A stretch of DNA of 64,000 nucleotides from Planctomycetota bacterium (GTDB lineage Bacteria; Planctomycetota; UBA1135; UBA2386), in NCBI GenBank assembly GCA_031423015.1, contig JANPER010000046.1, forward strand, positions 12,647 to 76,646. Direction: 5' to 3'. The notes beneath the pieces are model-generated. The model ran no database searches and was not told where the DNA came from. It worked only from the letters and a program-made list of their open reading frames with translations. Both the position numbers and the translations under genes were made by a program. How positions within the stretch are numbered: position 1 is the stretch's first letter; the number at the start of each line of letters is the position of its first letter. Positions 6,512 through 36,465 of the stretch are shown piece after piece.

Positions 6512-6550
6512 GCCTGAGGCGAAGCCGCGCTAGGGCATTGGCATGCAGTT

Positions 6551-9008: not shown

Positions 9009-9610
9009 GGCGTACCCTCCAGGAGCGCGGCGAGGCGGGCCAGCGCACGACTCAACTGCACGCGCACGGCACCGTCGCTTTGGCCAGTTTGTTCGGCGAT
9101 CTCGGCCGAACTCAGCCCGACGACACGCGACAAGAGCACCACCTCACGGTAGGTCTCGGGCAACGCATCGATGGCGGTCTCGATCCGTGTGACACCCTCG
9201 CGCGCCACCAATTCCTGGGTCGGCGACAGCATGGTGCCGTAGGCATGCCCCAAGGCGGCATCGCCCGCGGTGCCTTGCACCTCGCGGCGCACGTCGCGCT
9301 TGCCGGCGATCAGCACGTTCTTGTGGTTGCGGATCTTGTTGAGGGCAAGCGCGAACAGCCAGTTGCGGAACGAGCCCTCGTTGCGCCATTCGAACTGGCC
9401 GAGGCTCTGCAGCGCCTGCCGGCACGCAGTCTGCACCAGGTCAGAATCCGCCTCGCGCGCGCGCAGCACCTGATCGGAGCGCAGCCGCACGAACGCCCGC
9501 AGCACCGGCAAGTAGCGGCGAATCAACGCATCGGCGGCGCCCCCGTCGCCGTCTTGCGCCGCGGCGACGAGCTGCTGGGTCGGGGCCTCGACCGGGGATT
9601 CGCGCGTCAT
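9005..9610 (-). CDS. ECF-family RNA polymerase sigma factor
   Basis: 201-aa ORF; region 2 (ALIRRYLPVLRAFVRLR, DLVQTACRQALQSLGQFEWRNEGSFRNWLFALALN) and region 4 (LPETYREVVLLSRVVGLSSAEIAEQTGQSDGAVRVQLSRALARL). Confidence 0.8.
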   Translation of the reverse strand: MTRESPVEAPTQQLVAAAQDGDGGAADALIRRYLPVLRAFVRLRSDQVLRAREADSDLVQTACRQALQSLGQFEWRNEGSFRNWLFALALNKIRNHKNVLIAGKRDVRREVQGTAGDAALGHAYGTMLSPTQELVAREGVTRIETAIDALPETYREVVLLSRVVGLSSAEIAEQTGQSDGAVRVQLSRALARLAALLEGTP

Positions 9611-9615
9611 GGGCT

Positions 9616-9664
9616 CGGAACTGTAACAACGAGGGCCGCGCGCGAATCACTCTGTGTGGTCTAG
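9616..9664 (+). promoter_or_regulatory. conserved 49-nt promoter-region block CGGAACTGTAACAACGAGGGCCGCGCGCGAATCACTCTGTGTGGTCTAG (candidate ECF-type -35 GGAAC)
   Basis: perfectly identical in both duplicate copies (9616..9664 and 11425..11473) although the adjacent coding sequence has diverged ~8 % and suffered a deletion; lies upstream of plus-strand genes 9786 and 11540. Confidence 0.35.
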
Positions 9665-9785
9665 GCCGGGGCAAACCATTGGTGCCGGTTCTGTTACAGT
9701 GCTGTCACCCGCGATTCCAACCCTTCGAGTTGCACGAGAAGACAGTGCCTCGAGGCAGCATCTCTTAACAGCACGGAGCATTGTC

Positions 9786-11006
9786 ATGTCGCCCTGGCAT
9801 CACCTCGTCGTAGGTTTCGGAGTGGTCGCGACCGCCGCCGCGCAGCGCACTTGGATCGTCGATGCTGCCAATGGGCCGGGAACCCATTTCACCGACATCC
9901 CGCCGGCGGTGGCCGCAGCGGTCGATGGCGACACCCTGCTGGTGCGCTCCGGCACCTACACCCCGTTCACGACCAACAAGGGGATCGCTGTGCTCGGGAC
10001 GCCCTCCGCGCTGGTGCAGACGCCGTCGTTCTTCCCCGGGATCATGGTGTCTGGGCTGCCAGCGGGCGCCGTGTTTCGCGCGCGTGGGCTGGTGCTCGGC
10101 GGCACGATCTCGCAGACGATGTCGCTGAACAGCAACGAGGGTGCCGTGCATTTGGAAGCGATCGAGTCGGCGGGTGGGCCGTTCCCACAGCCCAACGCCG
10201 CGATCGGCATAAGCTCGAGTCGGTTGGTGACCATCGTCGATTGCGGGCAACGATCGATTCTCGCCGTCAACGTTGCCAGCTCGCGCGTCAGCATCGTCCA
10301 TAGTCAGCTGCGCGGTCGATCGGCATTCAGCGATCCCCGCGCTGGCTCGTGGCCGGCCACGTCCGCACTCAGCATGGCGAGTGGCAGTGTGGTCGATGTC
10401 GCCGACTGCACCCTGCTCGGCGGCCGGGGTGCCTCGATTTGGCCGCACGTGGGCACCTACTGGTCGAGCGCGCCGGCGATCAACCTCAGCAACCTGTTTG
10501 GCGATCCGACCCTGCGGTTGCGTGCGGGAACCGTCGGCTCCGCGAGTTCTGGAATCGGGATCAACCCGGCAACGCCGATGTCGGCCATCGCGGGCATCGG
10601 CGTGGCGCAGGTCGACAGCCGCGTGGCCCTCGCCTCGTACGCCGGCGCGCCCCTGATAGACCCGGGTGTGCGGGCGACGATCGGTTTGGTGCCCGGCTTG
10701 AGCCTGGTCGGCGGCGGGTTGGGGAGCAATCTCGTGCTCACGCACCACGGGCAAGCCAATCAACCCTGTTTGGCGGGGCTCGGCGTGGTCGGCACGGTGC
10801 TGTCCTTCCCGTTTGGCGATCTGGTCCTCGACCTTGCCACCATGCAGACGCTCCCGCTCGTGTTCGCCGACGGCAGCGGCGTCGCAACCTGGACCGTGCC
10901 GCTGCCGAACAATCCCACGCTGGCTGGGGCAGCGTTCACCTGGCAGGTGGGCAGCGACGCAGGTGGACTGATGTTGTCGAATGCGGTGAGCGTGATCTTG
11001 CGCTGA
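9786..11006 (+). CDS. secreted protein, predicted right-handed parallel beta-helix (pectate-lyase-like fold)
   Basis: internal ATG of ORF 9654..11006 giving signal-like MSPWHHLVVGFGVVATAAAQ; GDTLLVRSGTYTP motif and Gly/Ser/Val-rich repeats; sits between the two copies of the duplication. Confidence 0.5.
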   Translation: MSPWHHLVVGFGVVATAAAQRTWIVDAANGPGTHFTDIPPAVAAAVDGDTLLVRSGTYTPFTTNKGIAVLGTPSALVQTPSFFPGIMVSGLPAGAVFRARGLVLGGTISQTMSLNSNEGAVHLEAIESAGGPFPQPNAAIGISSSRLVTIVDCGQRSILAVNVASSRVSIVHSQLRGRSAFSDPRAGSWPATSALSMASGSVVDVADCTLLGGRGASIWPHVGTYWSSAPAINLSNLFGDPTLRLRAGTVGSASSGIGINPATPMSAIAGIGVAQVDSRVALASYAGAPLIDPGVRATIGLVPGLSLVGGGLGSNLVLTHHGQANQPCLAGLGVVGTVLSFPFGDLVLDLATMQTLPLVFADGSGVATWTVPLPNNPTLAGAAFTWQVGSDAGGLMLSNAVSVILR

Positions 11007-11096
11007 CGCGCTGGCCACCGGCGCTGTCGACGCTAGCCGAAGGGGCGCTCCATGAGGGGAAACATGCGTCGCGGGAGGGTAGGGAAGTTCGTGTCA

Positions 11097-11413
11097 CGAC
11101 CAGGCCGCGCGTGCACGCGGCACTCACGGCGTCCCCTCCGGCAGCGCGGCGAGGCGGGCCAGCGCCCGACTCAACTGCACGCGCACGGCACGGTCGGTTT
11201 GGCCGGTCTGCTCGGCGATCTCGACCGAACTCAGCCCGACGACACGCGACAAGAGCACCACTTCACGGTAGGTCTCTGGCAACGCATCGATGACGACATC
11301 GATCCGTGTGACACCCTCACGCGCCACCAATTCCTGCATCGGCGGCACCCCCGTCGCCGTCTTGCGCCGCGGCGACGAGCTGCTGGGTCGGGGCCTCGAC
11401 CGGAGATTCTCGC
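11097..11413 (-). pseudogene. degraded duplicate of the 9005..9610 sigma gene plus the first ~30 nt of its downstream gene
   Basis: ~92 % identical to 8976..9223 then jumps to the equivalent of 9527; start region reads MMRESPVEAPTQQLVAAAQDGDGGAADAGIGGA-stop, remainder (MPPMQELVAREGVTRIDVVIDALPETYREVVLLSRVVGLSS...) in another frame. Confidence 0.7.
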
Positions 11414-11424
11414 ATCATGGCGCC

Positions 11425-11473
11425 CGGAACTGTAACAACGAGGGCCGCGCGCGAATCACTCTGTGTGGTCTAG
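11425..11473 (+). promoter_or_regulatory. second copy of the conserved promoter-region block, 67 nt upstream of the kinase ORF
   Basis: identical 49-mer to 9616..9664. Confidence 0.35.
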
Positions 11474-11539: not shown

Positions 11540-14353
11540 GTGGCACAATGGCCCTCTCGCGTTCCTGCCATGACTCGCTCCTACTCGCCGCCTCCCGAAG
11601 CTGACGCCCTCGGGCCCCTGGACCGGGTCGAAGAACTGCTCGGGGAGTGTCTCGCCGAACCGCAAGCGCAGTGGCCCGCGGCGATCGAGCGCCTGTGCGA
11701 CCGGCATCCAACCGAAGCCCTGGCCCTGCGCCGGCGCTTCGCGGCACTGCAGCGCGCCGGCTTGATGCACGAGCCGGGCAGCCAAGCGAGCGACCTGGCT
11801 CTGGTGCGCGCGTTGGCGCAAGACCAGCCGGAGATCGCCGCCGCGCTGGCCGACGCGGCCGGAGTCGACCGATCGTCGGTGCACGGCCTGCCGACGCCAA
11901 CCGACGCACGGCTCGGTACCACGCTGAGCAAACGCTACCGGCTCGTCGCGCGCATCGGCGCGGGCGCGATGGGCGTGGTCTATCGCAGCCACGACGAAGA
12001 GCTGCGCCGCGAGGTCGCCGTCAAGCTGCTCGACGCCGGCCAAGTCGTCGACCCCAAGGCGGAAGCGCGCTTCCTGCAAGAAGCCGAGCTGCTCGCGGGC
12101 CTGCGCCACGACGCGATCGTGACCCTGCACGACCGCGGACGCAGCGAGCGCGGCGAGTTGTTCTTGGTGATGGAACTGCTCGATGGCGTGCCGCTCACCC
12201 GCGTGCTGCAGGCCATCGACGGCGTGTCGACTGCGGGTCACTTGGCGGCGGTGCGAGAAGTGCTCGCGGCTCGTGAAGCGGGCCAAGACGCGCCACCGGC
12301 CGGGAACGGCAAGGCGTTGCCCGAGTCGAGCGTGGTGCGCCTGATCGCGCGCTGGGGCGCCGAACTCGCCGAGGGCCTCGCGGTGGCCCACGCGGCCGGT
12401 GTTCTGCACCGCGACATCAAGCCGTCGAACGTGTTCGTGCGGCGCGACGGCCGCGCGGTGTTGCTCGACTTTGGCATTGCCACGCGAGGTGGCGACCTCA
12501 CGGCGGCTGGCACCGTGCTCGGCACGCCGTGGTACATGGCGCCCGAGCAGGCCACCGCGCAGGGCAAGCTGACACCGGCGCTCGACGTGTACGGGTTGTC
12601 GTCGTGCCTCTATCACCTGTTGTCTGGTCGCCCGCCGTTCGAGGGTGATCCGCTGGCGGTGTTGGCGCGCATCGCCAGGGACGACCCGCCGCGGTTGTCG
12701 GCGGTCAAGCCCGACCTGGCGCGCGACCTGCGAGCCATCGTCGAGACCGGCATGGCGCGCGCGCCGCGCGATCGCTACGCCAGCATGGTTGCGTTGGCTA
12801 GCGATCTGCGCGCGTTCCTCGAACACCGCCCGATCACTGCGCGACCGCTGTCGAGCGTGGGACGGCTGTGGCGAAGCGCCAAGCGTCGGCCAGCCCGCGC
12901 CGCCCTGATCGCTGCCGCCTTGGTGATCGCGACGCTCTCGCTCGGGCTCCAGGCCGCCCGCGCGCGTGAGGCTGCGCGCAGCAAGGTGGCGCGCAAGACC
13001 GAACTCATGGCGCGCTTGCCGGAGACTCTGGCGTTCGAAGGCCTGCCTGAGCAACGGCTGCTCGCCAGCGTGCGGCCGGAGCACACGGGGTTCCTGGCTG
13101 AACTCGACGAGATCGTCGCGCTCGACCCTGACGACCTGCCGCCGCTGCTGTGGCGGGCGGCGCTGCGCCTCGATGAGGGTCAACACGAAGCCGCGGCCCA
13201 AGACCTGGCGCACGCCGCGCAACGCGCGCCGACGCCCTACTTGGCCGCGGTCGCCGCGCGCTATCAACGCGCGGCGCGCGACCGCCGGGGCACCGAGTCG
13301 ATCGACCTCGCGAACATCGACGCCACGCCGAACACGCCCGCAGATTGCTTCGTCGCCGGCTTCCATGAGCTGCGCAACCGCCACATCGAGGGCTTTGCCA
13401 AGCGGGCCGACGAGCTGCTCACGCGCGCCGCCGAAGCGTACCCCCCGGCGCGCGACCTGCGCCTCGTGGCCTTGGTGGCACGGGGCGACTACGAGGATCC
13501 GCTGTACTTCATCACCGCGGTCAACGAGTCGCTGCGGCTCGAAGGCGTATACGGGCGAGGCACGGCGCGCACGTATGCGCTGCGTGGCGCGGCGCTCGCC
13601 GCCATGGGGCGCAACAAGGAGGCGTTGGCGCCGTTGCAGAAGGCGCTCGAAATGCGGCCCGGCCGCCACTCGCCGCTGCAGAACCTCGCCGTGGTGCATC
13701 GCGCGCTCGGCAACACTGAGCTAGCCAAGAAGTACATCGACGCGGCCTACGCGGCGCGACCGTACTTCTGGAACACGACGTTCCTGCGCGCGCAGATCAT
13801 GTCGGATGCTGGCGAGTTCGCTGCCGCTTGTGAGCTGGTCGCAGGCATCGACGAGAGCGATGCGCCCGACCTCGCATGGCGCAAGCCGTACCTGCTGGCC
13901 ACCATCGGCACCGAAGAGGTGGCCACGCTCTACCGTCGCGGCGCCACCGCGGCCGAACGCGAGGCCGTTGCCGCGCGCGCGTTCACCCACCTGGACACCG
14001 TCTGCGCACACCCGAGCGCGCCGGATGGCTACAAGCAACGCGCGGCCAATCGCCGCGCCATCATCCAGGCGCTCCTGCACCACGACGACGAGGGCGCCAG
14101 CATCCGTTTCCTTCGGCAGCTGACCGAGGTCCCAAACGATGCCGCGGCGCTGCGCAACCTCGCGGCCTTGTTGCCCGAGCGCAACCTGTCGGAACGCGCG
14201 ATCGCCCACCTGCGGCTGTTCCTGGCAACCTTGGCGCACCTGAGCGCCGTGCAGGACAACCGGCAACAGCTGGTGCGCGACGATGCGCGCAAGCGCGTCA
14301 ATCAACTCGAATCCACCGATACCTCAACCTCCACCGAAAGCAGAATCAAATGA
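11540..14353 (+). CDS. serine/threonine protein kinase with C-terminal TPR-repeat region
   Basis: 937-aa ORF (alternative ATG at 11570); kinase subdomains GAGAMGVVYRS, AVKLL, HRDIKPSNVFV, DFGIA, GTPWYMAPE; C-terminal half with TPR-like helical repeats. Confidence 0.8.
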   Translation: MAQWPSRVPAMTRSYSPPPEADALGPLDRVEELLGECLAEPQAQWPAAIERLCDRHPTEALALRRRFAALQRAGLMHEPGSQASDLALVRALAQDQPEIAAALADAAGVDRSSVHGLPTPTDARLGTTLSKRYRLVARIGAGAMGVVYRSHDEELRREVAVKLLDAGQVVDPKAEARFLQEAELLAGLRHDAIVTLHDRGRSERGELFLVMELLDGVPLTRVLQAIDGVSTAGHLAAVREVLAAREAGQDAPPAGNGKALPESSVVRLIARWGAELAEGLAVAHAAGVLHRDIKPSNVFVRRDGRAVLLDFGIATRGGDLTAAGTVLGTPWYMAPEQATAQGKLTPALDVYGLSSCLYHLLSGRPPFEGDPLAVLARIARDDPPRLSAVKPDLARDLRAIVETGMARAPRDRYASMVALASDLRAFLEHRPITARPLSSVGRLWRSAKRRPARAALIAAALVIATLSLGLQAARAREAARSKVARKTELMARLPETLAFEGLPEQRLLASVRPEHTGFLAELDEIVALDPDDLPPLLWRAALRLDEGQHEAAAQDLAHAAQRAPTPYLAAVAARYQRAARDRRGTESIDLANIDATPNTPADCFVAGFHELRNRHIEGFAKRADELLTRAAEAYPPARDLRLVALVARGDYEDPLYFITAVNESLRLEGVYGRGTARTYALRGAALAAMGRNKEALAPLQKALEMRPGRHSPLQNLAVVHRALGNTELAKKYIDAAYAARPYFWNTTFLRAQIMSDAGEFAAACELVAGIDESDAPDLAWRKPYLLATIGTEEVATLYRRGATAAEREAVAARAFTHLDTVCAHPSAPDGYKQRAANRRAIIQALLHHDDEGASIRFLRQLTEVPNDAAALRNLAALLPERNLSERAIAHLRLFLATLAHLSAVQDNRQQLVRDDARKRVNQLESTDTSTSTESRIK

Positions 14354-16340: not shown

Positions 16341-19133
16341 ATGAGCGCGCGATCTGGTGGCCCATCGTCCGACGGCAAGACCACTCACGCCGCGACGCCG
16401 CAGGATGCGGAGCGGCCCGGCGATGCAGCGCCGCCGGTTGCTGCCACCGCCGAAGCGCGACGCCTGGACGAGGACGCGCACCGGCGCAAGAACTGGAAGC
16501 GTTGGGGACCCTATCTCGCCGAGCGGCAATGGGGCACGGTGCGCGAGGATTACTCGCCCGACGGCAGCTGCTGGACGTACTTCTCGCACGACCAGGCCCG
16601 CAGTCGCGCCTATCGCTGGGGCGAAGACGGGTTGCTCGGGTTCACCGATCGGCAATGCCGACTCTGCTTTGCGCTCGCGCTGTGGAACGGCAAGGACGCC
16701 ATCCTCAAGGAACGGCTCTATGGCCTGACGGGCCCCGAGGGCAATCACGGCGAGGACGTAAAGGAGGCTTACTTCTATGTCGACGCCACACCGACGCACT
16801 CGTACTGCAAGGGCCTCTACAAATACCCGCAGCGGGCGTTTCCTTACCGCGAGCTGATCGACGAGAACGCGCGGCGCGGCCTTTCGGCAGTGGAATACGA
16901 ACTCAGCGACACCGGCGTGTTCGATGAGCTGCGTTTCTTCGACGTCACCGTCGAGTATGCCAAGGCCTCGCCCGACGACATCTTGATCCGCATCGAGGTC
17001 GAGAATCGCGGGCCCGACGCAGCGCCGCTGCACGTGCTGCCGACCCTGTGGTTCCGCAACACCTGGAGCTGGGGACGCAGCGGCGAGGGCTACTCAACCA
17101 AGCCGCGCATCACGCGCATCGGCCCTGGCACGCTGCGCGCCGAGAGCGACCGCATCAGCGCGCACCGTTTAGCGATCGAGCCGCTGCCCGATGGCCCACC
17201 GCGGCTGCTGTTCTGCGACAACGAGACCGACGTCGTGGGCCTGTTCGGCGCCGCCTCGGGGCCGGTCGCGCCCAAGAACGCGTTCCATGCGTTCGTCGTC
17301 GACGGCAAGGCCGACGCGCTGGCGCCGTCGCACACCGGCACCAAGGCGGCCGCGCACTGCGTGCTGCAGGTGGCGCCCGGGGCACGCGCCGTCATTCGCC
17401 TGCGCTTGGTCGCCGACCGCGAGTCGACGCCGACCCCGTTCCAAGACTTCGACGCGGTGTTCGCGGCAAGGCGGCGCGAGGCCGACGAGTACCACACCGC
17501 GATCGCGCCGCACAACCTCAGCGTCGACGAACGCGCGGTGCTGCGTCAGGCCTACGCCGGTTTGTTGTGGACGAAGCAGTTCTATCACCTCGACGTCAAG
17601 ACCTGGCTCGAAGGCGATCCGGCGCAGCCGGTACCGCCCAAGGAGCGCCAGCACGGCCGCAATCACGACTGGCAGCACCTCTACAACCGCGACGTGATCT
17701 CGGTGCCCGACAAGTGGGAGTACCCGTGGTACGCGGCGTGGGACCTCGCGTTCCACATGGTGCCGTTCGCGCATGTCGACGCGCCGTTCGCCAAGGACCA
17801 GCTCACCCTCATGCTGCGCGAGTGGTACATGTCGCCGTCGGGGCAGATCCCGGCCTACGAGTTCGCCTTCGAAGACGTGAACCCGCCGGTGCACGCGTGG
17901 GCCTGCTGGCGCGTCTACAAGATGACCGGGCCGCGCGGCAAGCGCGATCGCGTGTTCTTGGCGCGCTCGTTCCAGAAGCTGCTCATCAACTTCACCTGGT
18001 GGGTCAACCGCAAGGACCCCGACGGCCAGCACATCTTCACCGGCGGGTTCTTGGGCCTGGACAACATCGGCGTGTTCGACCGCAACAAGCCGCTGCCCGA
18101 CGGCGGGCGCTTGGAGCAGGCGGACGGCACGGCGTGGATGGCGTTCTACTGCGCCACCATGCTGTCGATGGCGCTCGAACTGGCGCACGAGGACCCGGCC
18201 TACGAAGACGTGGCGTCGAAGTTCTTCGAGCACTTCGTGGCGATCACTGACGCGATCAACATGGTCGGTGGCGAAGGCCTGTGGGACGCCGAGGACGGCT
18301 TCTACTACGACCAGATCCGCACCGGCGGGCGCGCCACCCGCCTCAAGGTCCGCTCGATGGTCGGGCTGATCCCGCTGTTCGCGGTCGAGATCCTGGAGGA
18401 GTCGGTGCTGGACGCCCTGCCAGCGTTCACCCGTCGCATGCGCTGGTTCCTCGACAACCGCCCCGAGTTCGCCAAGCACGTCACCCGCACGCGCGGCGCC
18501 GACGGCGGCGACCGCCACATCCTGCTGGCGATTCCCAGCCAAGAGCAACTCGTGCGCGTGCTGCGCTACGCCCTCGACGAGAACGAGTTCTTGTCGCCGT
18601 ACGGCGTGCGCTCGTTGTCGAAGGTGCATCGCATGCGCCCCTTCGTGCTGCAGTCGGATCACAGTGCGTCGCAGGTGGACTACGTGCCCGGCGACTCGAC
18701 GACGCGCATGTTCGGCGGCAACTCGAATTGGCGCGGCCCGATCTGGTTCCCAGTCAACTTCCTGCTGATCGAAGCGCTCGAACGCTACCACCACTTCTAC
18801 GGCGACAGCGTGCGCGTCGAGTGCCCGACCGGCTCGGGGACCTGGCTCACGCTCGGCCAAGTGGCGCACGAGTTGGCGAGCCGCCTATGTCGCCTGTTCC
18901 TGCCCGATGCCACCGGCCAGCGCCCATTCGCCGGCGCTGATCGTCTGTTCGCGCACGACCCCAAGGCGCGCCAGTTGCTGTTGTTCCACGAGTACTTCGA
19001 CGGCGACACTGGCCGCGGGTTGGGTGCGAGTCATCAGACCGGATGGACGGGGCTGGTGACGCGCTGCCTCGAGTACGTGGCGCGCGTGCGCCGGCAGGGC
19101 GCGGCGGCGGCGACGGTCGTGCGGGAACGCTAG
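16341..19133 (+). CDS. glycoside hydrolase family 63-like glucosidase (MGH1-like)
   Basis: 930-aa ORF; WKRWGPYLAERQWGTVREDYS, WGEDGLLGFTDRQCRLCFALALWNGKD, (alpha/alpha)6-barrel region WEYPWYAAWDLAFH recalled from GH63/mannosylglycerate-hydrolase-like proteins. Confidence 0.6.
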   Translation: MSARSGGPSSDGKTTHAATPQDAERPGDAAPPVAATAEARRLDEDAHRRKNWKRWGPYLAERQWGTVREDYSPDGSCWTYFSHDQARSRAYRWGEDGLLGFTDRQCRLCFALALWNGKDAILKERLYGLTGPEGNHGEDVKEAYFYVDATPTHSYCKGLYKYPQRAFPYRELIDENARRGLSAVEYELSDTGVFDELRFFDVTVEYAKASPDDILIRIEVENRGPDAAPLHVLPTLWFRNTWSWGRSGEGYSTKPRITRIGPGTLRAESDRISAHRLAIEPLPDGPPRLLFCDNETDVVGLFGAASGPVAPKNAFHAFVVDGKADALAPSHTGTKAAAHCVLQVAPGARAVIRLRLVADRESTPTPFQDFDAVFAARRREADEYHTAIAPHNLSVDERAVLRQAYAGLLWTKQFYHLDVKTWLEGDPAQPVPPKERQHGRNHDWQHLYNRDVISVPDKWEYPWYAAWDLAFHMVPFAHVDAPFAKDQLTLMLREWYMSPSGQIPAYEFAFEDVNPPVHAWACWRVYKMTGPRGKRDRVFLARSFQKLLINFTWWVNRKDPDGQHIFTGGFLGLDNIGVFDRNKPLPDGGRLEQADGTAWMAFYCATMLSMALELAHEDPAYEDVASKFFEHFVAITDAINMVGGEGLWDAEDGFYYDQIRTGGRATRLKVRSMVGLIPLFAVEILEESVLDALPAFTRRMRWFLDNRPEFAKHVTRTRGADGGDRHILLAIPSQEQLVRVLRYALDENEFLSPYGVRSLSKVHRMRPFVLQSDHSASQVDYVPGDSTTRMFGGNSNWRGPIWFPVNFLLIEALERYHHFYGDSVRVECPTGSGTWLTLGQVAHELASRLCRLFLPDATGQRPFAGADRLFAHDPKARQLLLFHEYFDGDTGRGLGASHQTGWTGLVTRCLEYVARVRRQGAAAATVVRER

Positions 19134-19150: not shown

Positions 19151-19247
19151 CCAGAGAAGAACCACCGAGAGCACGGAGAACACAGAGGAACATCCTGGCC
19201 GCCGATCCAGATCTCTGTGGCCTCGGTGGGCTCTGTGGTTCTTCTCT
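19151..19247. repeat. palindromic REP/MITE-like intergenic element, copy B
   Basis: CAGAGAAGAACCACCGAGAGCACGGAGAACACAGAGG ... CTCTGTGGCCTCGGTGGGCTCTGTGGTTCTTCTCTG form an imperfect ~37-bp inverted repeat; right arm near-identical to 6483..6511. Confidence 0.6.
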
Positions 19248-19317
19248 GCTCTGGAGCTGACGTCCAAACTTGACGCATCCGTCACGTCTTCCATCAACCA
19301 AGTCTAGCTGGCTCAGC

Positions 19318-19704
19318 TTAGACGACCTTGGCTCCTCTCTCTGACAACATCTGACGCAAGACCGACCTGTGACAGCGAGCCTCGTCTTCGCAGTAGCAGC
19401 CCACCGAGAACTGCGTCCCGTGCGAGAGCGCTGCCAGCAGATCCAGGACTCTGCTGTTCTCGGGCTTCTTCATCTCGGTGCGGTACCGCTTGACGAAAGC
19501 AGCCCATTGCCGGTCGGTCTGCGCGCGCAGTCCCAGCGCCACCGTCTCTTGCGTGGGAGACAAGTTCGGCAGCCAGACGTCGTACCAGTTGCCCGATGCG
19601 AACTCGGACTTCGGGACGCCGCGTGGTGGGCGCCTGACGGTTCCGATCCTCGGGCCCTCGTTCGGGGCCCTCTCGCTACCAAGTCGGACGATTCGTATAG
19701 CCAT
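19318..19704 (-). CDS. DUF488-family protein
   Basis: 128-aa ORF; MAIRIVRLGSERAPNEGPRIGTVRRPPRGV...WLPNLSPTQETV...VGCYCEDEARCHRSVLRQML pattern recalled from DUF488. Confidence 0.55.
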   Translation of the reverse strand: MAIRIVRLGSERAPNEGPRIGTVRRPPRGVPKSEFASGNWYDVWLPNLSPTQETVALGLRAQTDRQWAAFVKRYRTEMKKPENSRVLDLLAALSHGTQFSVGCYCEDEARCHRSVLRQMLSERGAKVV

Positions 19705-19838
19705 GGATCTGAGGCGTTGAGGAGCCCAGTGGCTTCGGAGCGGAACCCCGCGCAGCGGTCGAAGCCAACTGCGGCTACCCTGTTCTAAAGCGGATTTGTC
19801 GCAACGCCAGGCCGGGGCGCGGTGCCTCCAGCTCCGTC

Positions 19839-22800
19839 ATGAGCAGTCTCCCTACCGATCTCGATCTCGGCGCCTTGCTGGCGGAGCAAGCTTTCGTGCG
19901 GCGCTTGGCGCGCAGTCTGGTGACCAACGCTGACGACGCCGACGACGTCGCGCAGCTGACCTGGATGCAGGCGCTGCGGCATCCGCTGCGGCAGCGCGCC
20001 AGCGCGCGCGCGTTCTTGGGTCAAGTCACCAGGCACGTCGCCAGCAACTTCCGGCGCGGCGATGCGCGGCGTCGGCGGCAAGAGCAGGCGGTCGCGACAC
20101 AACCCGAGGCCACGCCGGTGGTCGACGCGTTCGCGCGCGAGTCGCTGCGCCAGCTGGTCGTCGCCGAACTGGCCGCCCTGCCCGAGCCGTATCGACGCAC
20201 GCTGGTGGCGCGCTTCTTCGACGACCTCACGCCGCACGCGATCGCCCAGCGCGAGAATGCCCCCGACGCCACCGTGCGCGCCCGCACGAAGCGCGGCCTC
20301 GAGCTGTTGCGTGAGCGACTCGATCGCCGCTACGGCGGCGACCGCAGCGCCTGGTGCACGGCGCTCGTGCCGCTCACGCGCGGCGGTCTGCCGGCGGGAA
20401 CCGGCGGGGTGATGGCGACCGTCTCTTTCTTTGGCCTGCGACAGCTGCTGGCCGTCGGCGTCGTGGGACTCGTGCTGGGCGCCGGGTTCTGGTGGCTGAG
20501 CGACGACGAAACTCCAGCGGCCATCCTGGCCATGGAACCGCCCACGGCCACGCTGCGGGTCGACAGCGTGCGCGCGACGACGGCCGAGTCACCGACTCCG
20601 GCGCGAACGACGTTGGCGTCAGCGCCCGAGGCAGCTCGAGAAGATGGCGACGCGCACCCACAGAACGGCATCCGTGGTCGGCTCGTGCTCGAAGACGGTC
20701 GGCCAGCCAAGCAACGCAAGGTCGAAGTCACTGGCCTCGACCCGACGCGGCTGTTCGACGGCGATCCCACGCAGCTCGAAGACTCGACGCCGCTGTTGAG
20801 CGCGACCACCCACAGCGACGACGAGGGGCGCTTCTCTCTCGACAACCTGCGCCCACGCGCCTTGTTGTTGCTGCAGGCTGGCCGCGGTGAGGCGGCGAGC
20901 GCGTACATTCCGGTGGCGCACACGCCTGGCGCCAAGCACGTGGTCGACCTCGGCGACATCGTGTTGCAGGCGCGCGGCACGCTGCGCGGGCGCGTGGTCG
21001 ACGACGCGGGGCAAGCCGTGGCCGGCGCCGACGTGTGGGCGGCGGACATGCCCGGCCTGGTCGCGCTCGCGATCAACGTCGATCGGTTCGTCCCGGCGCA
21101 CGGTGGCATGTTGCTGCTGCCCAAGGCCACCGCCGGCGAAGACCTCGCGCGCTTTGCCGAACGCACACGCGAGTACCTCGGCAGGGAACTGTGCATGCAG
21201 GTCCAGGCGCCGAGCCCCGAGTTCGACGCGCTGGTGCTGGACACGCCCGCATGGTTCACCCGCCTGTGGAACGCGTTGCCGATGGCGCGCACGACGACCG
21301 CGGCTGACGGCACGTTCACCCTGCAAGACGTCGAGCCCGCCAACAACATGCTGGTGGTGACCAAGGCGGGCTTCGATCGCGGCTTCAAGCCGAGCGTGAA
21401 GGTGCAGGCCGGCGCGCCGCGCGACCTCGGCGAGATCACGCTGCAACGCGGTGAAGTGTGCAGCGGCAAGATCGTCGACGCCACCGACCGCCCGGTCGCA
21501 CGCGCCGCGGTGCGCGTCGCGGTGTTGCCGCCAGGCGGCTTTCGCGGCCTCGCGTTCTGCGAGGCCGAAGTGCGCGCCGACACGCAGGGCAACTTCGCGG
21601 TGCCGGGCCTGCGCGCGGGTCGCGTGCTGGTGGCGGCACGCAGTCGTGACGACGCGCCGTGGACCGTGGCTGGCCCGTTCGCCGTCGATGACGACATCGC
21701 GCTGCGGTTGCCGGCGCCGGCCGAGTTGACCGTGCGGGTGACCACGCCCGCCGCGGCGCCGACCGTGCGCCTCACCTTCGGCCCGGCCCTGGGCGAGCTT
21801 GCGCGCATGGGCCTGCGCCAAGCCGTGGCGATGGAGGGTCGCGTAGTCGAAGAATCGCACGGAACGTGGCGCGTGCGCGACCTCGCGCCGGGCAGCTACC
21901 AACTCGAGGTCTCGGCGCCAGGTTGCGTCACCGCGCGTCGGCTGGTGCAGGTGCCGGGCGAGGCCGAGGTCGCTCTCGCGCCCCAAGCGCCGACGTTCGA
22001 CGTGTTGGTGGTGTCGACGGCGAACGTGCCCCTCGCCGGGGCCCGCGTGCGATGCGCACCGCGCGACGCGGCGTTCGCGCGCTCGGTGCTGCCGACGTCC
22101 TTCGGCCTCAACGCATCCGACGTGCTCGCCACCTCGCTCGGGTGCTCAGACCGTGACGGGCGCCTGCGGGTATCAGGGATGCCATGCGGGGAGCTGAACC
22201 TGTGGGCCGATCACCCCGACCACGGCGCTGGCACGGCGCGCGCCGAACTACCGGCGCAGACCCTTGTGCTGCGTTTGCCCGCCGCGTGCACCATCGAGGG
22301 CATGCTGCTCGAAGGTGGCCAACCGGCGTCGGCGAGCGAGTGGCGCATCGCCGCGACCGCCGGCGATCGCGACGACGGCATCGAGCGTCCGTACACGCTC
22401 GCCGCGCCGGCCGCCGACGGCAGCTTCAAGATCACCGGCTTGGACCCCGGCGCTTACACGGTCCGCGCGCTGCCGGCGCTGCCGCCGCGCCTGTCGCTCG
22501 ATGCCCTGCAGTCGCTGTTGCGCGAGCGCATCTTCACGTTCTTCTTGCACTCCGACGCACCGCGATCCCGCGAGGTCGTGCTGGCCGAGGGCGAGTTGCG
22601 CACGATCCAGATCGACGTGCGCGTCGCGCCGCCCGCGGTGCAGCCGCAGGCCGGCGTCGTCGGGCGCGTGACCATCGACGGCAAGGGCACGGCCGGCGTG
22701 GGAGTGCACGGCAACGCGAGCTGGTGGAGCACGACACCTGCGCTCGCCACCACGGCGGCCGACGGCAGCTACTGCGTGACCGACCTCGCCGAAGGGTCGC

Positions 22801-23414
22801 ACACGCTCACGTTCCGGGCGGCGAGCGGCCACACCTTGGGCGAGCGCACGGTGTCAGTGCCCGCGCGCGGCGACGTCGCGCTCGACCTCGACGTGCGCAC
22901 GTCGAGCCTGGCGGGCCAAGTGATCGCGCCGCCTGATCGCTCGCTCCGCGGGGCGCGCCTCGCCGGGCGCAACGCGCAAGGGCGCGCGGTCTTCGAGATC
23001 CCCGTGCAAGACGATGGCGCATTCCACGCGCAGGAAGTGCCTTGTGGCACGTGGTCGTTGACCGTGGAAGGCCCTGGCGTCACCGGGCCTGACCACCAAG
23101 CGATGGTGACGTTGGAGCCGCAGCACGCGGTGGTCGACTGCAAGATCACGGCGGTGGCCGCCTACCAGCTCGAAGTCAAGGTCGAGACCGCGCGCCCGAA
23201 CGAACCCTGTTTCTTGGAGCTGTCGCATCTCGCCACGGGCTCGACGCGGTTGTTCCGCGCCAACGAGGAAGGGCGCGTGGCGTTCGTCGGGTTGAGCGGC
23301 GGCAAGTATCACATGAGCGTCAAGTCCTTGTCGCTGGCCGGTGACGTCGAGCTCAGCGGCGAGGCGCAGCACAAGGTGCTGCTCACCGCGCGCGGAGTGG
23401 TCCGCATCGAGTAG
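19839..23414 (+). CDS. ECF sigma-factor domain fused in one ORF to a transmembrane segment and a large CarbopepD-repeat extracytoplasmic region
   Basis: single 1191-aa ORF; aa 1-165 have sigma region 2 (DADDVAQLTWMQALR) and region 4 (LPEPYRRTLVARFFDDLTPHAIAQRENAPDATVRARTKRGLELLRERL); linker then TM helix FFGLRQLLAVGVVGLVLGAGFWWL; remainder paralogous to 6600..9008. Confidence 0.6.
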   Translation: MSSLPTDLDLGALLAEQAFVRRLARSLVTNADDADDVAQLTWMQALRHPLRQRASARAFLGQVTRHVASNFRRGDARRRRQEQAVATQPEATPVVDAFARESLRQLVVAELAALPEPYRRTLVARFFDDLTPHAIAQRENAPDATVRARTKRGLELLRERLDRRYGGDRSAWCTALVPLTRGGLPAGTGGVMATVSFFGLRQLLAVGVVGLVLGAGFWWLSDDETPAAILAMEPPTATLRVDSVRATTAESPTPARTTLASAPEAAREDGDAHPQNGIRGRLVLEDGRPAKQRKVEVTGLDPTRLFDGDPTQLEDSTPLLSATTHSDDEGRFSLDNLRPRALLLLQAGRGEAASAYIPVAHTPGAKHVVDLGDIVLQARGTLRGRVVDDAGQAVAGADVWAADMPGLVALAINVDRFVPAHGGMLLLPKATAGEDLARFAERTREYLGRELCMQVQAPSPEFDALVLDTPAWFTRLWNALPMARTTTAADGTFTLQDVEPANNMLVVTKAGFDRGFKPSVKVQAGAPRDLGEITLQRGEVCSGKIVDATDRPVARAAVRVAVLPPGGFRGLAFCEAEVRADTQGNFAVPGLRAGRVLVAARSRDDAPWTVAGPFAVDDDIALRLPAPAELTVRVTTPAAAPTVRLTFGPALGELARMGLRQAVAMEGRVVEESHGTWRVRDLAPGSYQLEVSAPGCVTARRLVQVPGEAEVALAPQAPTFDVLVVSTANVPLAGARVRCAPRDAAFARSVLPTSFGLNASDVLATSLGCSDRDGRLRVSGMPCGELNLWADHPDHGAGTARAELPAQTLVLRLPAACTIEGMLLEGGQPASASEWRIAATAGDRDDGIERPYTLAAPAADGSFKITGLDPGAYTVRALPALPPRLSLDALQSLLRERIFTFFLHSDAPRSREVVLAEGELRTIQIDVRVAPPAVQPQAGVVGRVTIDGKGTAGVGVHGNASWWSTTPALATTAADGSYCVTDLAEGSHTLTFRAASGHTLGERTVSVPARGDVALDLDVRTSSLAGQVIAPPDRSLRGARLAGRNAQGRAVFEIPVQDDGAFHAQEVPCGTWSLTVEGPGVTGPDHQAMVTLEPQHAVVDCKITAVAAYQLEVKVETARPNEPCFLELSHLATGSTRLFRANEEGRVAFVGLSGGKYHMSVKSLSLAGDVELSGEAQHKVLLTARGVVRIE

Positions 23415-23645
23415 GACAGACTCCGGTGCGAGCCGGTGGCAACCGGCATCACCACCAGCAGCAGCGATGCGAAGTGGCGGCGCCGGATGGAATCAGCGTT
23501 TGCCGAATCGCGCCAGAAGCCCACTGCTCGGACGGCAACGGGCCACCCCCCCCTTCGCCACGATTCGCCACGACTTGCGGGCCTCGCCCAAGGCGCCTAG
23601 CCTCAGCGCCTTCCTCGCTCGCAGCAACCGCCGCAGGAGCCACCC

Positions 23646-25349
23646 ATGCCTTCGCCACAACCACGGCCGAGGGTTGCACCACCCCCCATGCCTGAACAAG
23701 ACCCGACGCCGCGCTACGACCGCGTCGTCGACCAAGCGGCGTGGGCAGCACGCGCGGCAGCGGCGCGGCCGCTGATCCTGGACTTCATCGAGTTCGCGCG
23801 GCGCGACCGCAACGCGCTCGCCGTGCGCGACCCGCAGCGCGGGGTGACGAGCCGCATGCGCACGCTGATCGGCGCCGTGGCGCTCGCGCGGGCACTGCGC
23901 CCGCGCTGGGCAGGCCAAGCGCGCGTCGGCGTGCTGCTGCCCCCATCGCTCGGCGGCATCGTCGCCAATCTGGCGGCGGCGTTGGCCGGCCGCACCGTGG
24001 TGAACCTCAACTACACAGCCGGCGCCAAGGCGATGGGCGCGTCGGCGCAGCAAGCCGGGTTGCGCACCGTGCTCACCAGCAAGGTCTTCCTCGAGAAAGC
24101 CAACCTGGAATTGCCGGCGGGCGTCGAGCCGATCTGGATCGAAGAGATCGGCGCAAGCATCGGCAAGCTCGCGAAGCTGCGGGCAGCAGCAGCAGCGGCG
24201 TGGCTCCCGAAGATCCAGCTCTTGCGCAGTTGTGGCGCCAACGCGCCGCTGAGCGCCGACGACCCGGTGACGATCATCTTCAGCAGCGGCAGCACCGGCG
24301 ACCCCAAGGGCGTGCCGCTCAGCCACCGCAACATCGCGAGCAACGTGGACGCGGCGTCGTACGTGCTGCCGCTTGGCGAGAGCGACCGCATCCTCGGCAT
24401 CCTGCCGCTGTTCCACGCCTTCGGCTACATGGTCACGTGGTTCGCGCTGAACCGGGGCATGTCGCTGGCGACCTATCCCAACCCGCGCGACGCGGATGGC
24501 ATCAAGAAGACGATGCGGGAGGCCGGCGCGACGGTGATCATCACGACGCCGACGTTCCTGCAGATGTGGCTGCGACGCTGCGAGCCCGACGACTTCCGCA
24601 CACTGCGCTTGGTCATCACCGGAGCCGAGCGTCTGAGCGATGCGCTCGCCGATGCGTTCGCCGAGCGCTTTGGGGTACGACCGCTCGAGGGCTACGGCCT
24701 CACCGAGTGCGCGCCCGTCGTTGCCGTGGGCACGCCGGGGGTGCCTGGCCGCGGCGTACCCGGTGGCACGCGCCTCGGTTTTGTCGGCCGGCCGTTGCCG
24801 GGCGTGCGGATCAAGATCGTCGACCCTGACACCCTGCAAGACTTGGCACCGCACAAGGAAGGCATGATCTTGGTGAAGGGCCCGAACGTGATGACCGGCT
24901 ACCTCGGCCGACCCGACTTGACGCAGGCGGCGTTCAAGGAGGGCTACTACATCACCGGCGACCTCGGCTACCTCGATGACGACGGCTTGCTGAAGATCAG
25001 CGATCGCTTGGCGCGCTTCGCCAAGATTGGCGGCGAGATGGTGCCGCACGGCCGCATCGAAGATGCGCTACACACGGCTGCCGAAGTGGACACGGGCGCG
25101 TTCGCGGTGACCTCGATCTCGTGCGCCAAGAAAGGCGAGCAGCTGGTGGTCTTGTCGACGCTGGGGCTCGACCTTGTGCCGATGCTGTTGGCGAAGTTGC
25201 CGCGTCTGGGGCTCCCCAACCTGTGGATCCCCAGCGAGCGCAACTTCATCAGCGTGCGCGAGCTGCCCGTGCTGGGCACTGGCAAGCTGGATCTGCGCGC
25301 GGTGAAGCAGAAGGCGATCGACGCCGTCGGCAACCGGGTCACGGCGTAG
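23646..25349 (+). CDS. AMP-dependent synthetase/ligase (acyl-CoA/acyl-ACP synthetase, Aas-C-terminal-like)
   Basis: 567-aa ORF (alternative start 23688); AMP-binding motifs IIFSSGSTGDPKGV, GYGLTEC, GDLGYLDDDGLLKISDRLARFAKIGGEMV. Confidence 0.7.
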   Translation: MPSPQPRPRVAPPPMPEQDPTPRYDRVVDQAAWAARAAAARPLILDFIEFARRDRNALAVRDPQRGVTSRMRTLIGAVALARALRPRWAGQARVGVLLPPSLGGIVANLAAALAGRTVVNLNYTAGAKAMGASAQQAGLRTVLTSKVFLEKANLELPAGVEPIWIEEIGASIGKLAKLRAAAAAAWLPKIQLLRSCGANAPLSADDPVTIIFSSGSTGDPKGVPLSHRNIASNVDAASYVLPLGESDRILGILPLFHAFGYMVTWFALNRGMSLATYPNPRDADGIKKTMREAGATVIITTPTFLQMWLRRCEPDDFRTLRLVITGAERLSDALADAFAERFGVRPLEGYGLTECAPVVAVGTPGVPGRGVPGGTRLGFVGRPLPGVRIKIVDPDTLQDLAPHKEGMILVKGPNVMTGYLGRPDLTQAAFKEGYYITGDLGYLDDDGLLKISDRLARFAKIGGEMVPHGRIEDALHTAAEVDTGAFAVTSISCAKKGEQLVVLSTLGLDLVPMLLAKLPRLGLPNLWIPSERNFISVRELPVLGTGKLDLRAVKQKAIDAVGNRVTA

Positions 25350-36250: not shown

Positions 36251-36465
36251 CCGGTTGCTTGCGCACTTCGCCCGATTCGTTGGCTCCGCTGCTGCGTGTC
36301 GCGACTGCTCATGCCGTCACCTGAGGCCGGGTGGCCAGCCTACGTGGCGCGGCGCCCGGCCTCCTCTAAGGCCCAGTCTAAGGCCCAACCGCTTACGGAA
36401 CGTCCTTCATAAGTCATTGCTAGCCATACGTTCCACTGCTTCAAGGTGATCGCCATTAGGTGCCG

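Follow-up and report, generated by a model that had tools for sequence, protein, structure and literature searches.

A planctomycete ECF sigma factor fused to a transmembrane helix and a large CarboxypepD_reg repeat array

A stretch of 64,000 nucleotides from a Planctomycetota bacterium (the window) carries a real and conserved gene that encodes, as one polypeptide, a sigma factor, a transmembrane (TM) helix and a beta-sandwich rod. The fusion is genuine and under selection, as attested by its orthologues, by an independent assembly and by GC3. The reading that we favour, at a probability of roughly 0.55, is that of a membrane-sequestered pro-sigma factor which would be released by regulated intramembrane proteolysis (RIP). 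The finding is a bioinformatic one, and long extensions on planctomycete ECF sigma factors were known in outline before.

Results

The gene and its parts are as follows.

19794..19826, forward strand: ECF-type promoter-like element, a block shared by six orthologue loci
19839..23414, forward strand: fused sigma/TM/repeat protein (ORF listing; identical protein P0001 in NCBI and Logan)
19887..20069, forward strand: Sigma-70 region 2, aa 17-77 (Pfam PF04542 Sigma70_r2, 30.8 bits, cut-off 24)
20154..20306, forward strand: Sigma-70 region 4, aa 106-156, helix-turn-helix (Pfam PF08281 Sigma70_r4_2, 27.9 bits, cut-off 25.7)
20343..20381, forward strand: conserved cytoplasmic linker helix, aa 169-181, RSAWCTALVPLTR (orthologue alignment, AF2)
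20409..20498, forward strand: pre-TM motif GGVMATVSFFGLR and single TM helix, core aa 203-220 (hydropathy scan, AF2 helix 190-220)
20499..20666, forward strand: Pro/Ala/Thr-rich juxtamembrane spacer, aa 221-276 (AF2, orthologue alignment)
20667..23411, forward strand: CarboxypepD_reg-like beta-sandwich array, aa 277-1191 (Pfam PF13620, iterated HMM, AF2, Foldseek)
21051..21278, forward strand: partly helical insertion in repeat 2, ~aa 405-480 (HMM repeat map, AF2)

As the sequence-only reading had stated, 19839..23414 is a single uninterrupted ORF of 1191 aa plus a stop codon in the ORF listing, and the layout proposed there, of sigma regions 2 and 4, a short linker, a single TM helix and a large extracytoplasmic repeat array, proved correct. 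An artificial joining of two adjacent genes, through loss of a stop codon or a frameshift in the MAG, might be suspected, as spurious long ORFs are typical of high-GC DNA (antisense ORFs of 492 and 455 aa overlap the gene) and one relative, L023, has an apparent frameshift between its sigma and extension halves. However, run SRR20217180 as assembled in Logan matches positions 19237..24301 of the window at 100% identity (5,065 nt, junction included), which excludes the loss of a stop codon between the sigma domain and the TM helix, a point that the earlier reading had wished to see checked. The sigma part has a GC3 of 0.87 and the extension one of 0.88, thus indicating a single coding frame throughout. 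The earlier reading had also proposed a comparison of fused and split relatives; all seven full-length orthologues (33-48% identity, aligned over the whole length, both halves conserved) are fused, as are most of the thousands of relatives and nearly all of the best 150 of 12,032. An assembly or annotation artefact is effectively refuted, the chance of one being negligible.

By domain content and predicted fold, aa 1-165 constitute a complete ECF (group 4) sigma factor. Region 2 contains the conserved motifs DDVxQxxW and RPWLxxVxRNxxxxxxR and is modelled by AF2 as helices at pLDDT >90, and region 4 aligns to region 4 of SigL and SigE; no match to sigma region 3 or region 1 was found in the Pfam scan of the fused protein. 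TIGR02937 (sigma70-ECF) scored 41.8 bits, slightly below its cut-off of 42.9, and the family profile matched M. tuberculosis SigL end to end (E 3e-26, positions 15-162), as well as SigE and SigW. The AF2 model of aa 1-221 (pLDDT 87) had SigL, sigmaE, AlgU, SigH and SigW as its best Foldseek PDB matches, with E values of 7e-6 to 5e-4. No Cys was found among the conserved columns of the sigma domain in a 34-sequence family alignment.

The linker that follows (aa 165-196, YGGDRSAWCTALVPLTRGGLPAGTGGVMATVS) has a single Cys and no His, and no HxxxCxxC zinc motif was found between sigma4 and the TM helix. Its helix, predicted at pLDDT 81-93, carries the family motif GGDRxxWxxALLPL; R169, A171, W172, P178 and L179 are invariant across the orthologues, and at least 90% of the 34 family members aligned keep W172. 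A linker of ~40 aa had been claimed, and a linker there is, but the actual distance from sigma4 to the TM helix is about 30-40 aa, ~13 of which form the conserved helix. Across the family this distance is about 25-40 aa, too short to accommodate an anti-sigma domain of about 80-90 aa, and none was found between sigma4 and the TM helix. The hydrophobic segment (aa 197-220) has R201 ahead and D222/D223/E224 behind, which fits an N-in/C-out orientation, and the family as a whole has one TM helix (median start aa 204) with a net charge of +0.94 before and -0.51 after. Of 151 family members, 63% have a Met within the 12 aa before the TM helix, where 12% would be expected, and Lys or Thr-Lys often follows it; the hydrophobic residues just upstream of this Met are likewise conserved across the family. 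The spacer that follows is predicted to be disordered (AF2 pLDDT 22-28) and is poorly conserved bar P226 and A227.

Beyond the spacer, CarboxypepD_reg scores 165 bits in five stretches of the protein (cut-off 32.3), and eight repeats were detected with the iterated HMM, at aa 277-367, 381-529, 542-624, 630-712, 723-811, 818-888, 939-1014 and 1023-1100. All-beta segments continue past aa 1100 to the C-terminus; in the full-length AF2 model aa 277-1189 are all-beta at a pLDDT of mostly 70-93, and the Foldseek matches are tandem Ig-like arrays. From the profile and the model, the array is predicted to hold at least 8-10 CarboxypepD_reg beta-sandwich repeats. Repeat 2 measures 149 aa, against about 80 in the others, and its insertion, with AF2 helices at 406-412, 436-449 and 471-479, ranks among the parts of the extension best conserved across the orthologues (NVDRFVPxHGGM, VLDTPxWxxRLWxALPxAR). 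The repeat region had been put at ~1000 aa and considered exceptional in size; it measures about 915 aa, and the family has a median post-TM length of 764 aa, with proteins of up to about 1450 aa.

The family itself is large; the sigma-linker-TM profile retrieved 12,032 cluster representatives (50% identity) at E<=1e-30, the best 150 of which all match through the TM helix and are mostly 700-1450 aa long. Among the Planctomycetota loci in GTDB species genomes, 18 of 22 are fused and one more has an apparent frameshift. Several paralogues occur per genome. The sigma domain and the extension are co-inherited, the closest N-terminal partner falling within the top five C-terminal partners in 55 of 129 proteins compared with ~5 by chance. 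The recurrence of one sigma lineage, linker, TM helix and repeat class, along with this co-inheritance and the conservation of both halves, indicates that the fusion arose once, long ago, and has been kept by selection, and did not come from repeated accidents.

A second combination of this kind is present within the window at 9005..9610 and 6600..9008, and had been taken for a coupled, homologous and split version of the fused gene. These are indeed two genes overlapping by GTGA, in different frames, where the fused gene is one ORF, but they do not represent its split form. The sigma factor 9005..9610 (TIGR02984-like planctomycete type, 121 bits) and the fused sigma domain share 29% identity over 58 aa only, and thus are homologous at superfamily level only. 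A degenerate duplicate of 9005..9610 adjoins a Ser/Thr kinase gene, a sign of the planctomycete ECF type regulated by kinases; the pair was rejected as a split form because it belongs to this different, Ser/Thr-kinase-type ECF lineage. The likeness lies in an ECF sigma factor being combined with a single-pass membrane protein of the same repeat class; the product of 6600..9008 (802 aa, single TM helix from about residue 9, eight CarboxypepD_reg repeats) is also without a cytosolic anti-sigma domain.

An autoregulatory ECF-type promoter had been sought upstream of 19839, and a plausible counterpart, conserved in the orthologues, lies at 19794..19826. It consists of a T-rich ATTTGT, a -35-like CGCAAC(GC) at 19800-19807, a 14-nt gap and a -10-like GTGCC at 19822-19826; as the ATG stands 12 nt after the latter, the transcript would be nearly leaderless. 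The motif YGMAACGC-N14-15-GKGMC is present about 10-15 nt upstream of the ATG in 6/6 orthologue loci, a count made in the same six sequences from which it was derived, and the upstream DNA of these loci is otherwise unalignable. In its strict form it has 10 matches in 1.09 Mb (both strands), seven of which are sites upstream of these genes. It is not common to the wider family beyond the orthologues, and a search of the window and of the DNA up to ~10 kb from the orthologues gave no second strict copy, so that no regulon is defined. The element could instead be a translation signal or another regulatory signal. The neighbours of the gene encode DUF488, a GH63-like hydrolase and an acyl-CoA synthetase; no conserved neighbouring gene is common to the orthologue loci, and the window yielded no gene for a site-1 or site-2 protease, nor was one found conserved beside the orthologues.

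Discussion

In the reading that we favour, the sigma factor would reside in the cytoplasm, anchored to the cytoplasmic membrane through the linker and the N-in/C-out TM helix, with the ~915-residue beta-sandwich rod reaching into the periplasm, where it would presumably serve as sensor or bind a ligand. As there is no anti-sigma domain, the sigma factor is most likely held inactive through membrane tethering alone, and packing of the linker helix on sigma4 may help to keep it so. A periplasmic trigger, be it a bound ligand or damage to, or trimming of, the rod or the disordered spacer, would produce a stub that is a substrate for a site-2 protease (S2P); cleavage within the Gly-rich TM helix would then free a sigma fragment of ~20 kDa, which would bind core RNA polymerase and transcribe its regulon together with its own gene from the YGMAACGC-N14-15-GKGMC element. 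Hydrophobic ends left by S2P cleavage act as degrons in other systems, and a released fragment ending in hydrophobic TM residues thus counts against this reading.

The lack of an anti-sigma domain, together with a sigma domain that appears complete and unobstructed in the model, could equally suit a sigma factor which is active while tethered, in the manner of ToxR or CadC. Core RNA polymerase would be recruited to the membrane and to nearby promoters, and the rod would modulate activity without cleavage, acting through oligomerisation or conformation; the linker of about 25-40 aa could allow some reach, and no protease is genetically linked. We consider this unlikely, however, as IutY, the sole characterised protein of the same topology, requires release, and a sigma factor kept ~30 residues away from the bilayer would make holoenzyme formation and promoter escape sterically demanding. 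Moreover, the Gly-rich TM helix and disordered juxtamembrane spacer resemble RIP substrates, these being features typical of the RseA/RsiW type. The odds are no better that the extension is mainly a structural or adhesive envelope protein with the sigma factor as its passenger and no sensory coupling of the halves, the product of a duplicated sigma gene inserted upstream of a signal-anchored CarboxypepD_reg gene. Sigma-less TM-CarboxypepD_reg proteins do exist in the same genomes (P0010 and the 802-aa protein), the conserved Met-Lys/Thr-x-x-Lys before the TM helix resembles the start of a signal-anchored protein, and planctomycete ECFs have been proposed to acquire unrelated C-terminal extensions by "fortuitous insertion" (Pinto and da Fonseca, 2020; PMC7671368). 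Yet thousands of clusters show the same sigma lineage, linker motifs, TM helix and repeat class, co-inheritance of the halves far exceeds chance, both halves are conserved in the orthologues, and the residues upstream of the pre-TM Met are conserved too. Conservation and co-inheritance argue against a lack of functional coupling, whilst being compatible with an origin by insertion.

The over-represented pre-TM Met, with the Lys or Thr-Lys after it, and the existence of sigma-less proteins of the same layout could also point to a dual product, in which an internal start at Met192 would give a sigma-less membrane rod as rival or partner of the full-length protein. This is less probable again; neither an internal promoter nor a ribosome-binding signal could be found for such a start, and the conserved hydrophobic residues upstream of the Met suggest a juxtamembrane protein motif over a start site.

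A broader version of the pro-sigma reading is offered tentatively, and is on balance doubtful. It would make the fused family a major unrecognised class of one-component transmembrane signalling in Planctomycetota, controlled purely by tethering. The planctomycete periplasm is unusually wide; a rigid rod of ~10 beta-sandwich domains, its length possibly in the tens of nanometres, might span it and sense the geometry or integrity of the envelope, or else bind polysaccharide, and the conserved motifs DRxxWxxALLPL and G-h-h-x-M-K/T-x-x-K on the cytoplasmic side might form the switch for release or auto-inhibition.

Among the major modes by which bacteria transduce signals, ECF sigma factors are the third, and planctomycetes have about 40 of them per genome. 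To our knowledge, mechanistic understanding of ECFs comes almost entirely from sigma/anti-sigma pairs, and we know of a single tethered sigma factor without an anti-sigma domain that has been dissected, IutY, which was regarded as an oddity. Judged by profile matches, the IutY-type architecture appears to exist on a very large scale in Planctomycetota, in ~12,000 clusters formed at 50% identity, where the sensor module differs and the linker motifs are the family's own. The family may therefore be a natural system in which to ask by what means a sigma factor that lacks an anti-sigma factor is silenced and set free, what CarboxypepD_reg arrays sense and how planctomycetes wire the envelope to transcription; the fused proteins might also serve synthetic biology as compact single-gene transmembrane sensors.

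Comparison with known systems

The classical systems RseA-sigmaE and RsiW-sigmaW rely on a single-pass N-in/C-out protein in which a periplasmic event leads to site-1/site-2 proteolysis and sigma release (PMC8103513). The fused protein is likewise single-pass and N-in/C-out, and coupling by proteolysis would be a further likeness; there, however, a separate sigma factor is held by a cytosolic anti-sigma domain of ~80-90 aa, whereas here the sigma factor is attached covalently, with no anti-sigma domain.

The multi-copy planctomycete group ECF57 (formerly ECF01-Gob) has long C-terminal extensions (PMC7826278, PMC8999054), and its description mentions WD40-like repeats and a pair of conserved cysteines that link sigma2 to sigma4 (PMC8999054). 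Phylum, several paralogues per genome and long C-terminal extensions are shared with the present family; by the published description of ECF57 the two differ, as there is no WD40 match and no conserved sigma-domain Cys here. SCO4117 (ECF52), ECF48 and ECF53 have a C-terminal extension across the membrane with an extracytoplasmic domain of carbohydrate-binding type and predicted proteolytic activation (PMC8999054). A membrane-crossing extension with an extracytoplasmic part is thus common to both; those groups, however, have a ZAS-like zinc-finger anti-sigma segment between sigma4 and the membrane, one or two TM helices and extensions reaching ~400 residues at most (PMC8999054), in contrast to a linker of about 30-40 aa without ZAS and an extension of about 1000 aa here.

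The sequence-only reading described fused ECF-TM architectures as essentially uncharacterised, a view now outdated, since SCO4117 has been studied in part (PMC8999054) and IutY of Pseudomonas putida (ECF243) more fully; in the latter, Prc trims the periplasmic part and RseP cuts to yield a sigma fragment of ~23 kDa (PMC5411451). IutY (374 aa) has a FecR-like periplasmic domain of ~190 aa, works with the TonB-dependent receptor IutA and is described as unique among its relatives. It bears the closest comparison, with a cytosolic ECF sigma factor, a single TM helix and a periplasmic domain in one polypeptide, and no cytosolic anti-sigma N-tail between sigma factor and TM helix. However, no FecR match was found in the fused protein (Pfam, E<=0.1) and no TonB-dependent receptor beside its gene or any orthologue examined; instead there are ~970 periplasmic residues of CarboxypepD_reg repeats, in another phylum and another ECF lineage, and in a family of thousands.

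The fused reading frame

The gene at 19839..23414 (+) had been read from the sequence alone as an ECF sigma factor joined to a transmembrane (TM) helix and a long repeat region, and this was borne out by Pfam, GC3 and ORF listing, the three parts lying in one uninterrupted ORF of 1191 codons. The frame called for validation: long ORFs arise spuriously in high-GC DNA, and the fused ORF is overlapped by two antisense ORFs of 492 and 455 aa. Pfam matches were obtained to Sigma70_r2 at aa 17-77 (30.8 bits, cut-off 24), Sigma70_r4_2 at aa 106-156 (27.9 bits, cut-off 25.7) and CarboxypepD_reg (165 bits, cut-off 32.3), whilst GC3 was 0.87 over the first 660 nt and 0.88 over the remainder, which means that a single frame is coding over the full length.

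The possibility that the fusion is an assembly artefact was rejected, as orthologues and other relatives are fused and an identical independent assembly exists. The identical protein (P0001) is recorded in NCBI and in the Logan assembly of run SRR20217180, where a contig of 5,065 nt shows zero mismatches to window 19237..24301. Whether orthologues are fused or split, a check proposed in the sequence-only reading, was answered by seven full-length orthologues from other metagenomes and MAGs (P0002, P0003 and P0005 to P0009; 33-48% identity, 1198-1250 aa), all of which have the same fused architecture and align end to end with no stop in any. Labels in their source records point to the Planctomycetota, with ENA bins named UBA2386. 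P0002 is entered in NCBI as a "sigma-70 family RNA polymerase sigma factor", and annotation pipelines label members of the fused family merely as sigma-70 family factors.

Sigma domain, linker and membrane segment

The family profile aligns end to end with SigL of M. tuberculosis (E 3e-26), SigE, B. subtilis SigW and AlgU, and the same ECF sigmas were the best PDB matches of an AF2 model of aa 1-221 (mean pLDDT 87). Conserved sigma motifs comprise DDVxQxxW in region 2.2, RPWLxxVxRNxxxxxxR in region 2.3/2.4 and EPYR...TVRxRLxRG in region 4. The linker between sigma4 and the TM segment is only ~25-40 residues long, which leaves too little space for a class I anti-sigma domain (80-90 aa), and an HxxxCxxC motif is absent from it. 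It contains two family-specific motifs. The first, GGDRxxWxxALLPL, has R169, A171, W172, P178 and L179 invariant across the orthologues (W172 is kept in at least 90% of 34 sequences) and coincides with a helix in the AF2 model at 169-181 (pLDDT 81-93). The second is a pre-TM motif, G-h-h-x-M-(K/T)-x-x-K, in which a conserved Met is followed by Lys or Thr-Lys-Thr-Lys directly before the membrane:

20409..20444 (+), aa 191-202: conserved Met then Lys or Thr-Lys-Thr-Lys, also in proteins P0005-P0054 (e.g., LAMTTKTK, LLMKK)

In 63% of members (12% expected) a Met is found no more than 12 residues ahead of the TM core, and position -1 relative to the TM is a Lys in 65 of 151. The pre-TM Met-Lys stretch looks like the beginning of a signal-anchored protein.

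The hydrophobic segment noted previously corresponds to aa 197-220, with Arg201 ahead of its core and Asp222, Asp223 and Glu224 behind it. Across 152 members the TM starts at a median residue of 204 and is followed by a median of 764 aa, with a net charge of +0.94 in the 14 residues before the TM and -0.51 after it; this charge pattern around a single TM fits an N-in/C-out topology. The TM core has a median of 3 helix-destabilising residues in the family and is Gly-rich in the present protein (GVVGLVLGAG).

The extracytoplasmic rod

Beyond the membrane, a Pro/Ala/Thr-rich juxtamembrane spacer (aa 221-276) is predicted to be disordered (AF2 pLDDT 22-28), followed by eight repeats delimited by iterated HMM searches (277-367, 381-529, 542-624, 630-712, 723-811, 818-888, 939-1014 and 1023-1100). 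The AF2 model of the array is all-beta to residue 1189, with pLDDT mostly 70-93, and repeat 2 bears a well conserved, partly helical insertion at ~aa 405-480. Foldseek searches of the extension against the PDB matched tandem Ig-like or transthyretin-like arrays exclusively (the Robo2 ectodomain, pilins, SdrD B domains and alpha-2-macroglobulin MG domains), with no enzyme among the matches.

Size and distribution of the family

Nearly all other matches in a whole-protein search were proteins of 670-1470 aa with Sigma70_r2/r4_2 and CarboxypepD_reg, each with one hydrophobic segment at ~aa 180-260. A profile of the N-terminal 221 residues, built from 34 sequences and searched against 1.84 billion cluster representatives, retrieved 12,032 of these at E<=1e-30; in the best 150 of the 12,032 (all E<3e-69) the match extends through the TM helix, and these are mostly 700-1450 aa long, the shorter ones probably being cut by contig ends.

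In GTDB species genomes, 22 loci were found in Planctomycetota, 18 of which are fused (722-1141 aa). The remaining four comprise one cut by a contig end, a genuine 319-aa short form (L019), a 185-aa stand-alone sigma with unrelated, convergent neighbours (L015), and L023, in which the repeat part, with six repeats detected, continues in another frame, probably through a frameshift. In this last MAG (4959..7485) the 325-aa sigma-linker part and the repeats occupy different, overlapping frames, reflecting either a sequencing frameshift or a copy recently split or pseudogenised. Several copies are present per genome: MAG OFTM341 has three loci, and L004, the locus of orthologue P0009, has two within 8 kb, which shows local multiplicity of the fused family:

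L004 2209..5424, same strand as P0009 and ~4.5 kb upstream: second fused sigma/CarboxypepD_reg paralogue, 1071 aa

P0010 is a TM and CarboxypepD_reg protein without any sigma domain. A true split version within the fused family was considered and rejected, as P0010 has no upstream sigma gene and L015, L023 and L019 are explained otherwise.

The coupled sigma and membrane protein genes

A pair of genes elsewhere in the window had been taken as the homologous, separate form of the fused gene.

9005..9610 (-): ECF sigma, 201 aa, TIGR02984-like; GTGA overlap with 6600..9008
6600..9008 (-): 802-aa membrane protein, TM at residues ~9-28 and eight CarboxypepD_reg repeats
9654..11006: 450-aa ORF, no Pfam match, between the two sigma copies
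11124..11420: degenerate duplicate of the pair sigma, repeats D1-D3 at 90-98% identity, without the region-2 part
11540..14353, divergent: Ser/Thr kinase with TPRs, 937 aa, adjoining the degenerate duplicate

The pair exists and is coupled by the GTGA overlap; as a split form of the fused gene it was rejected, since its sigma factor shares only 29% identity over 58 aa with the fused sigma, has a different best NCBIfam match (TIGR02984, Planctomycetaceae-specific subfamily 1, 121 bits) and has a kinase-linked duplicate. As the TM of the 802-aa protein begins at about residue 9, there is no cytosolic anti-sigma domain. The duplication covers the sigma gene and its upstream region (11096..11473 against 8977..9664) in three direct-repeat blocks, and the duplicate lacks ~300 nt encoding region 2. 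Such a position next to a Ser/Thr kinase is the hallmark of those planctomycete ECF groups that are regulated by kinases (PMC7826278).

Gene neighbourhood

The fused gene stands alone.

16341..19133: GH63/MGH1-like hydrolase, beyond the DUF488 gene
19318..19704, divergent: DUF488 gene, upstream of the fused gene
23646..25349: AMP-binding acyl-CoA synthetase, downstream of the fused gene
57326..58708 (-): BlaR1-type M56 peptidase, a membrane signal-transducing protease (Pfam)
59997..62264 (-): Kelch-repeat beta-propeller protein, 755 aa

None of its three neighbours (the DUF488, hydrolase and synthetase genes) is conserved at the six orthologue loci examined, where the flanking genes are unrelated, and no linked anti-sigma, protease or target operon was found in the window neighbourhood or in these six contexts. 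The BlaR1-type peptidase is the sole peptidase-family match among the window ORFs scanned against Pfam, with no evident link to the fused sigma. A Kelch protein similar to that of the window occurs at L004 15208..17268, ~1.5 kb downstream of P0009, which is probably a coincidence as this gene family is abundant in these genomes. Other features of the window are as follows.

5806..6413 (-): two small overlapping ORFs, 97 and 105 aa, putative ParE/RelE-type toxin and antitoxin, by eye only
32801..40879 (-): type I restriction-modification genes, with HsdR (1149 aa, N-terminal DUF4145)
38115..39269 (-): HsdS, type I restriction-modification
39266..40879 (-): HsdM, type I restriction-modification
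40890..43136: PriA, following the type I restriction-modification genes
49907..51118 (+): HEPN/RES N-terminal and RES domain protein, a toxin-type module

An unannotated 340-aa ORF sits among the restriction-modification genes.

A conserved promoter-like element

Upstream of six orthologues, the DNA could be aligned only over a single block, which keeps the same distance to the ATG and consists of a T-rich run, YG[CA]AACGC, 14-15 nt and G[GT]G[AC]C.

19794-19826: promoter-like element ATTTGT-CGCAACGC-(14 nt)-GTGCC, ending 12 nt before the ATG of the fused gene

ECF promoters are classically laid out as TG(C/A)AAC with an AAC core, a ~16-nt spacer and a short -10 rich in G/C, the version for sigmaW being TGAAAC-N16-CGTA. 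The sequence-only reading had suggested looking for a GGAAC-type promoter upstream of 19839; what was found is a conserved candidate of the form YG[CA]AACGC-N14-15-G[GT]G[AC]C, whose fixed position across orthologues of only 33-48% identity is hard to explain by chance, and which suggests autoregulation and a nearly leaderless transcript. If the element is a promoter, the leader would be only a few nt long with no Shine-Dalgarno sequence (window 19827..19839), and likewise in all six orthologues. Over 1.09 Mb of sequence, both strands included, there are 10 instances of the strict pattern, and 7 of the 10 are the conserved orthologue sites, a count which enters the window and its Logan duplicate separately and is not an independent test, the pattern being derived from the same sequences.

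A promoter motif common to the whole family was rejected, k-mer enrichment in 24 upstream regions returning start-codon context only. Of 21 other loci, only 3 scored above the 95th percentile of the control with a PWM of the orthologue -35 block, so that the motif is specific to the orthologue group, as would be expected if paralogues diverged in promoter specificity. There were no further copies in the window or the orthologue flanks, and therefore no regulon can be named. Scans for sigma-70-type promoters and intrinsic terminators at the fused gene gave nothing above chance.

Origin and proposed mechanism

Pinto and da Fonseca (PMC7671368) proposed that planctomycete ECFs acquire unrelated C-terminal extensions when duplicated sigma genes insert fortuitously, and the pre-TM Met-Lys signature would fit an event in which a signal-anchored gene was captured. 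In 55 of 129 proteins, the nearest relative by N-terminal part also ranks among the five nearest by C-terminal part, with ~5 expected by chance, and both the sigma half and the extension half are conserved in the orthologues; this joint inheritance and conservation points to an old fusion maintained by selection.

The sole characterised protein with a sigma/TM/periplasmic topology is IutY of Pseudomonas putida (374 aa), in which one TM joins a sigma domain in the cytosol to a FecR-like domain in the periplasm. Prc trims IutY to ~50 periplasmic residues before a cut by RseP frees a ~23 kDa active sigma, and its truncations are constitutively active (PMC5411451, PMC8999054). Beyond the architecture of the fused protein, we infer every mechanistic step. 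By analogy, the sigma domain would be held inactive by sequestration at the membrane and released by regulated intramembrane proteolysis (RIP) on the IutY pattern, a proposal made because no other regulator was found, the juxtamembrane spacer is disordered and the TM is Gly-rich. The conserved linker helix could add auto-inhibition or protect the released fragment.

Other readings have to be weighed against release by proteolysis. The sigma factor may be active whilst tethered, in the manner of ToxR, or the protein may be a structural rod carrying a passenger sigma. Internal initiation at Met192 may also occur; the pre-TM Met motif may be left over from the fusion, mark an internal start or serve in recognition next to the membrane.

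Comparison with known systems

Literature searches yielded no relevant paper joining sigma factors with CarboxypepD_reg arrays or on membrane-tethered or transmembrane sigma factors, and none on the fused family itself. The fused protein would work like IutY but is not of the same family, having neither a FecR domain nor a TonB-dependent receptor. It differs from ECF52, ECF53 and ECF48 in having no ZAS segment, and is set apart from ECF57, as described, by the absence of the WD40 repeats and paired cysteines reported there. Long extensions of planctomycete ECFs and fused sigmas released by RIP are already known in outline, whilst the scale of the family, its sensor module and its linker motifs are new and merit experimental follow-up.
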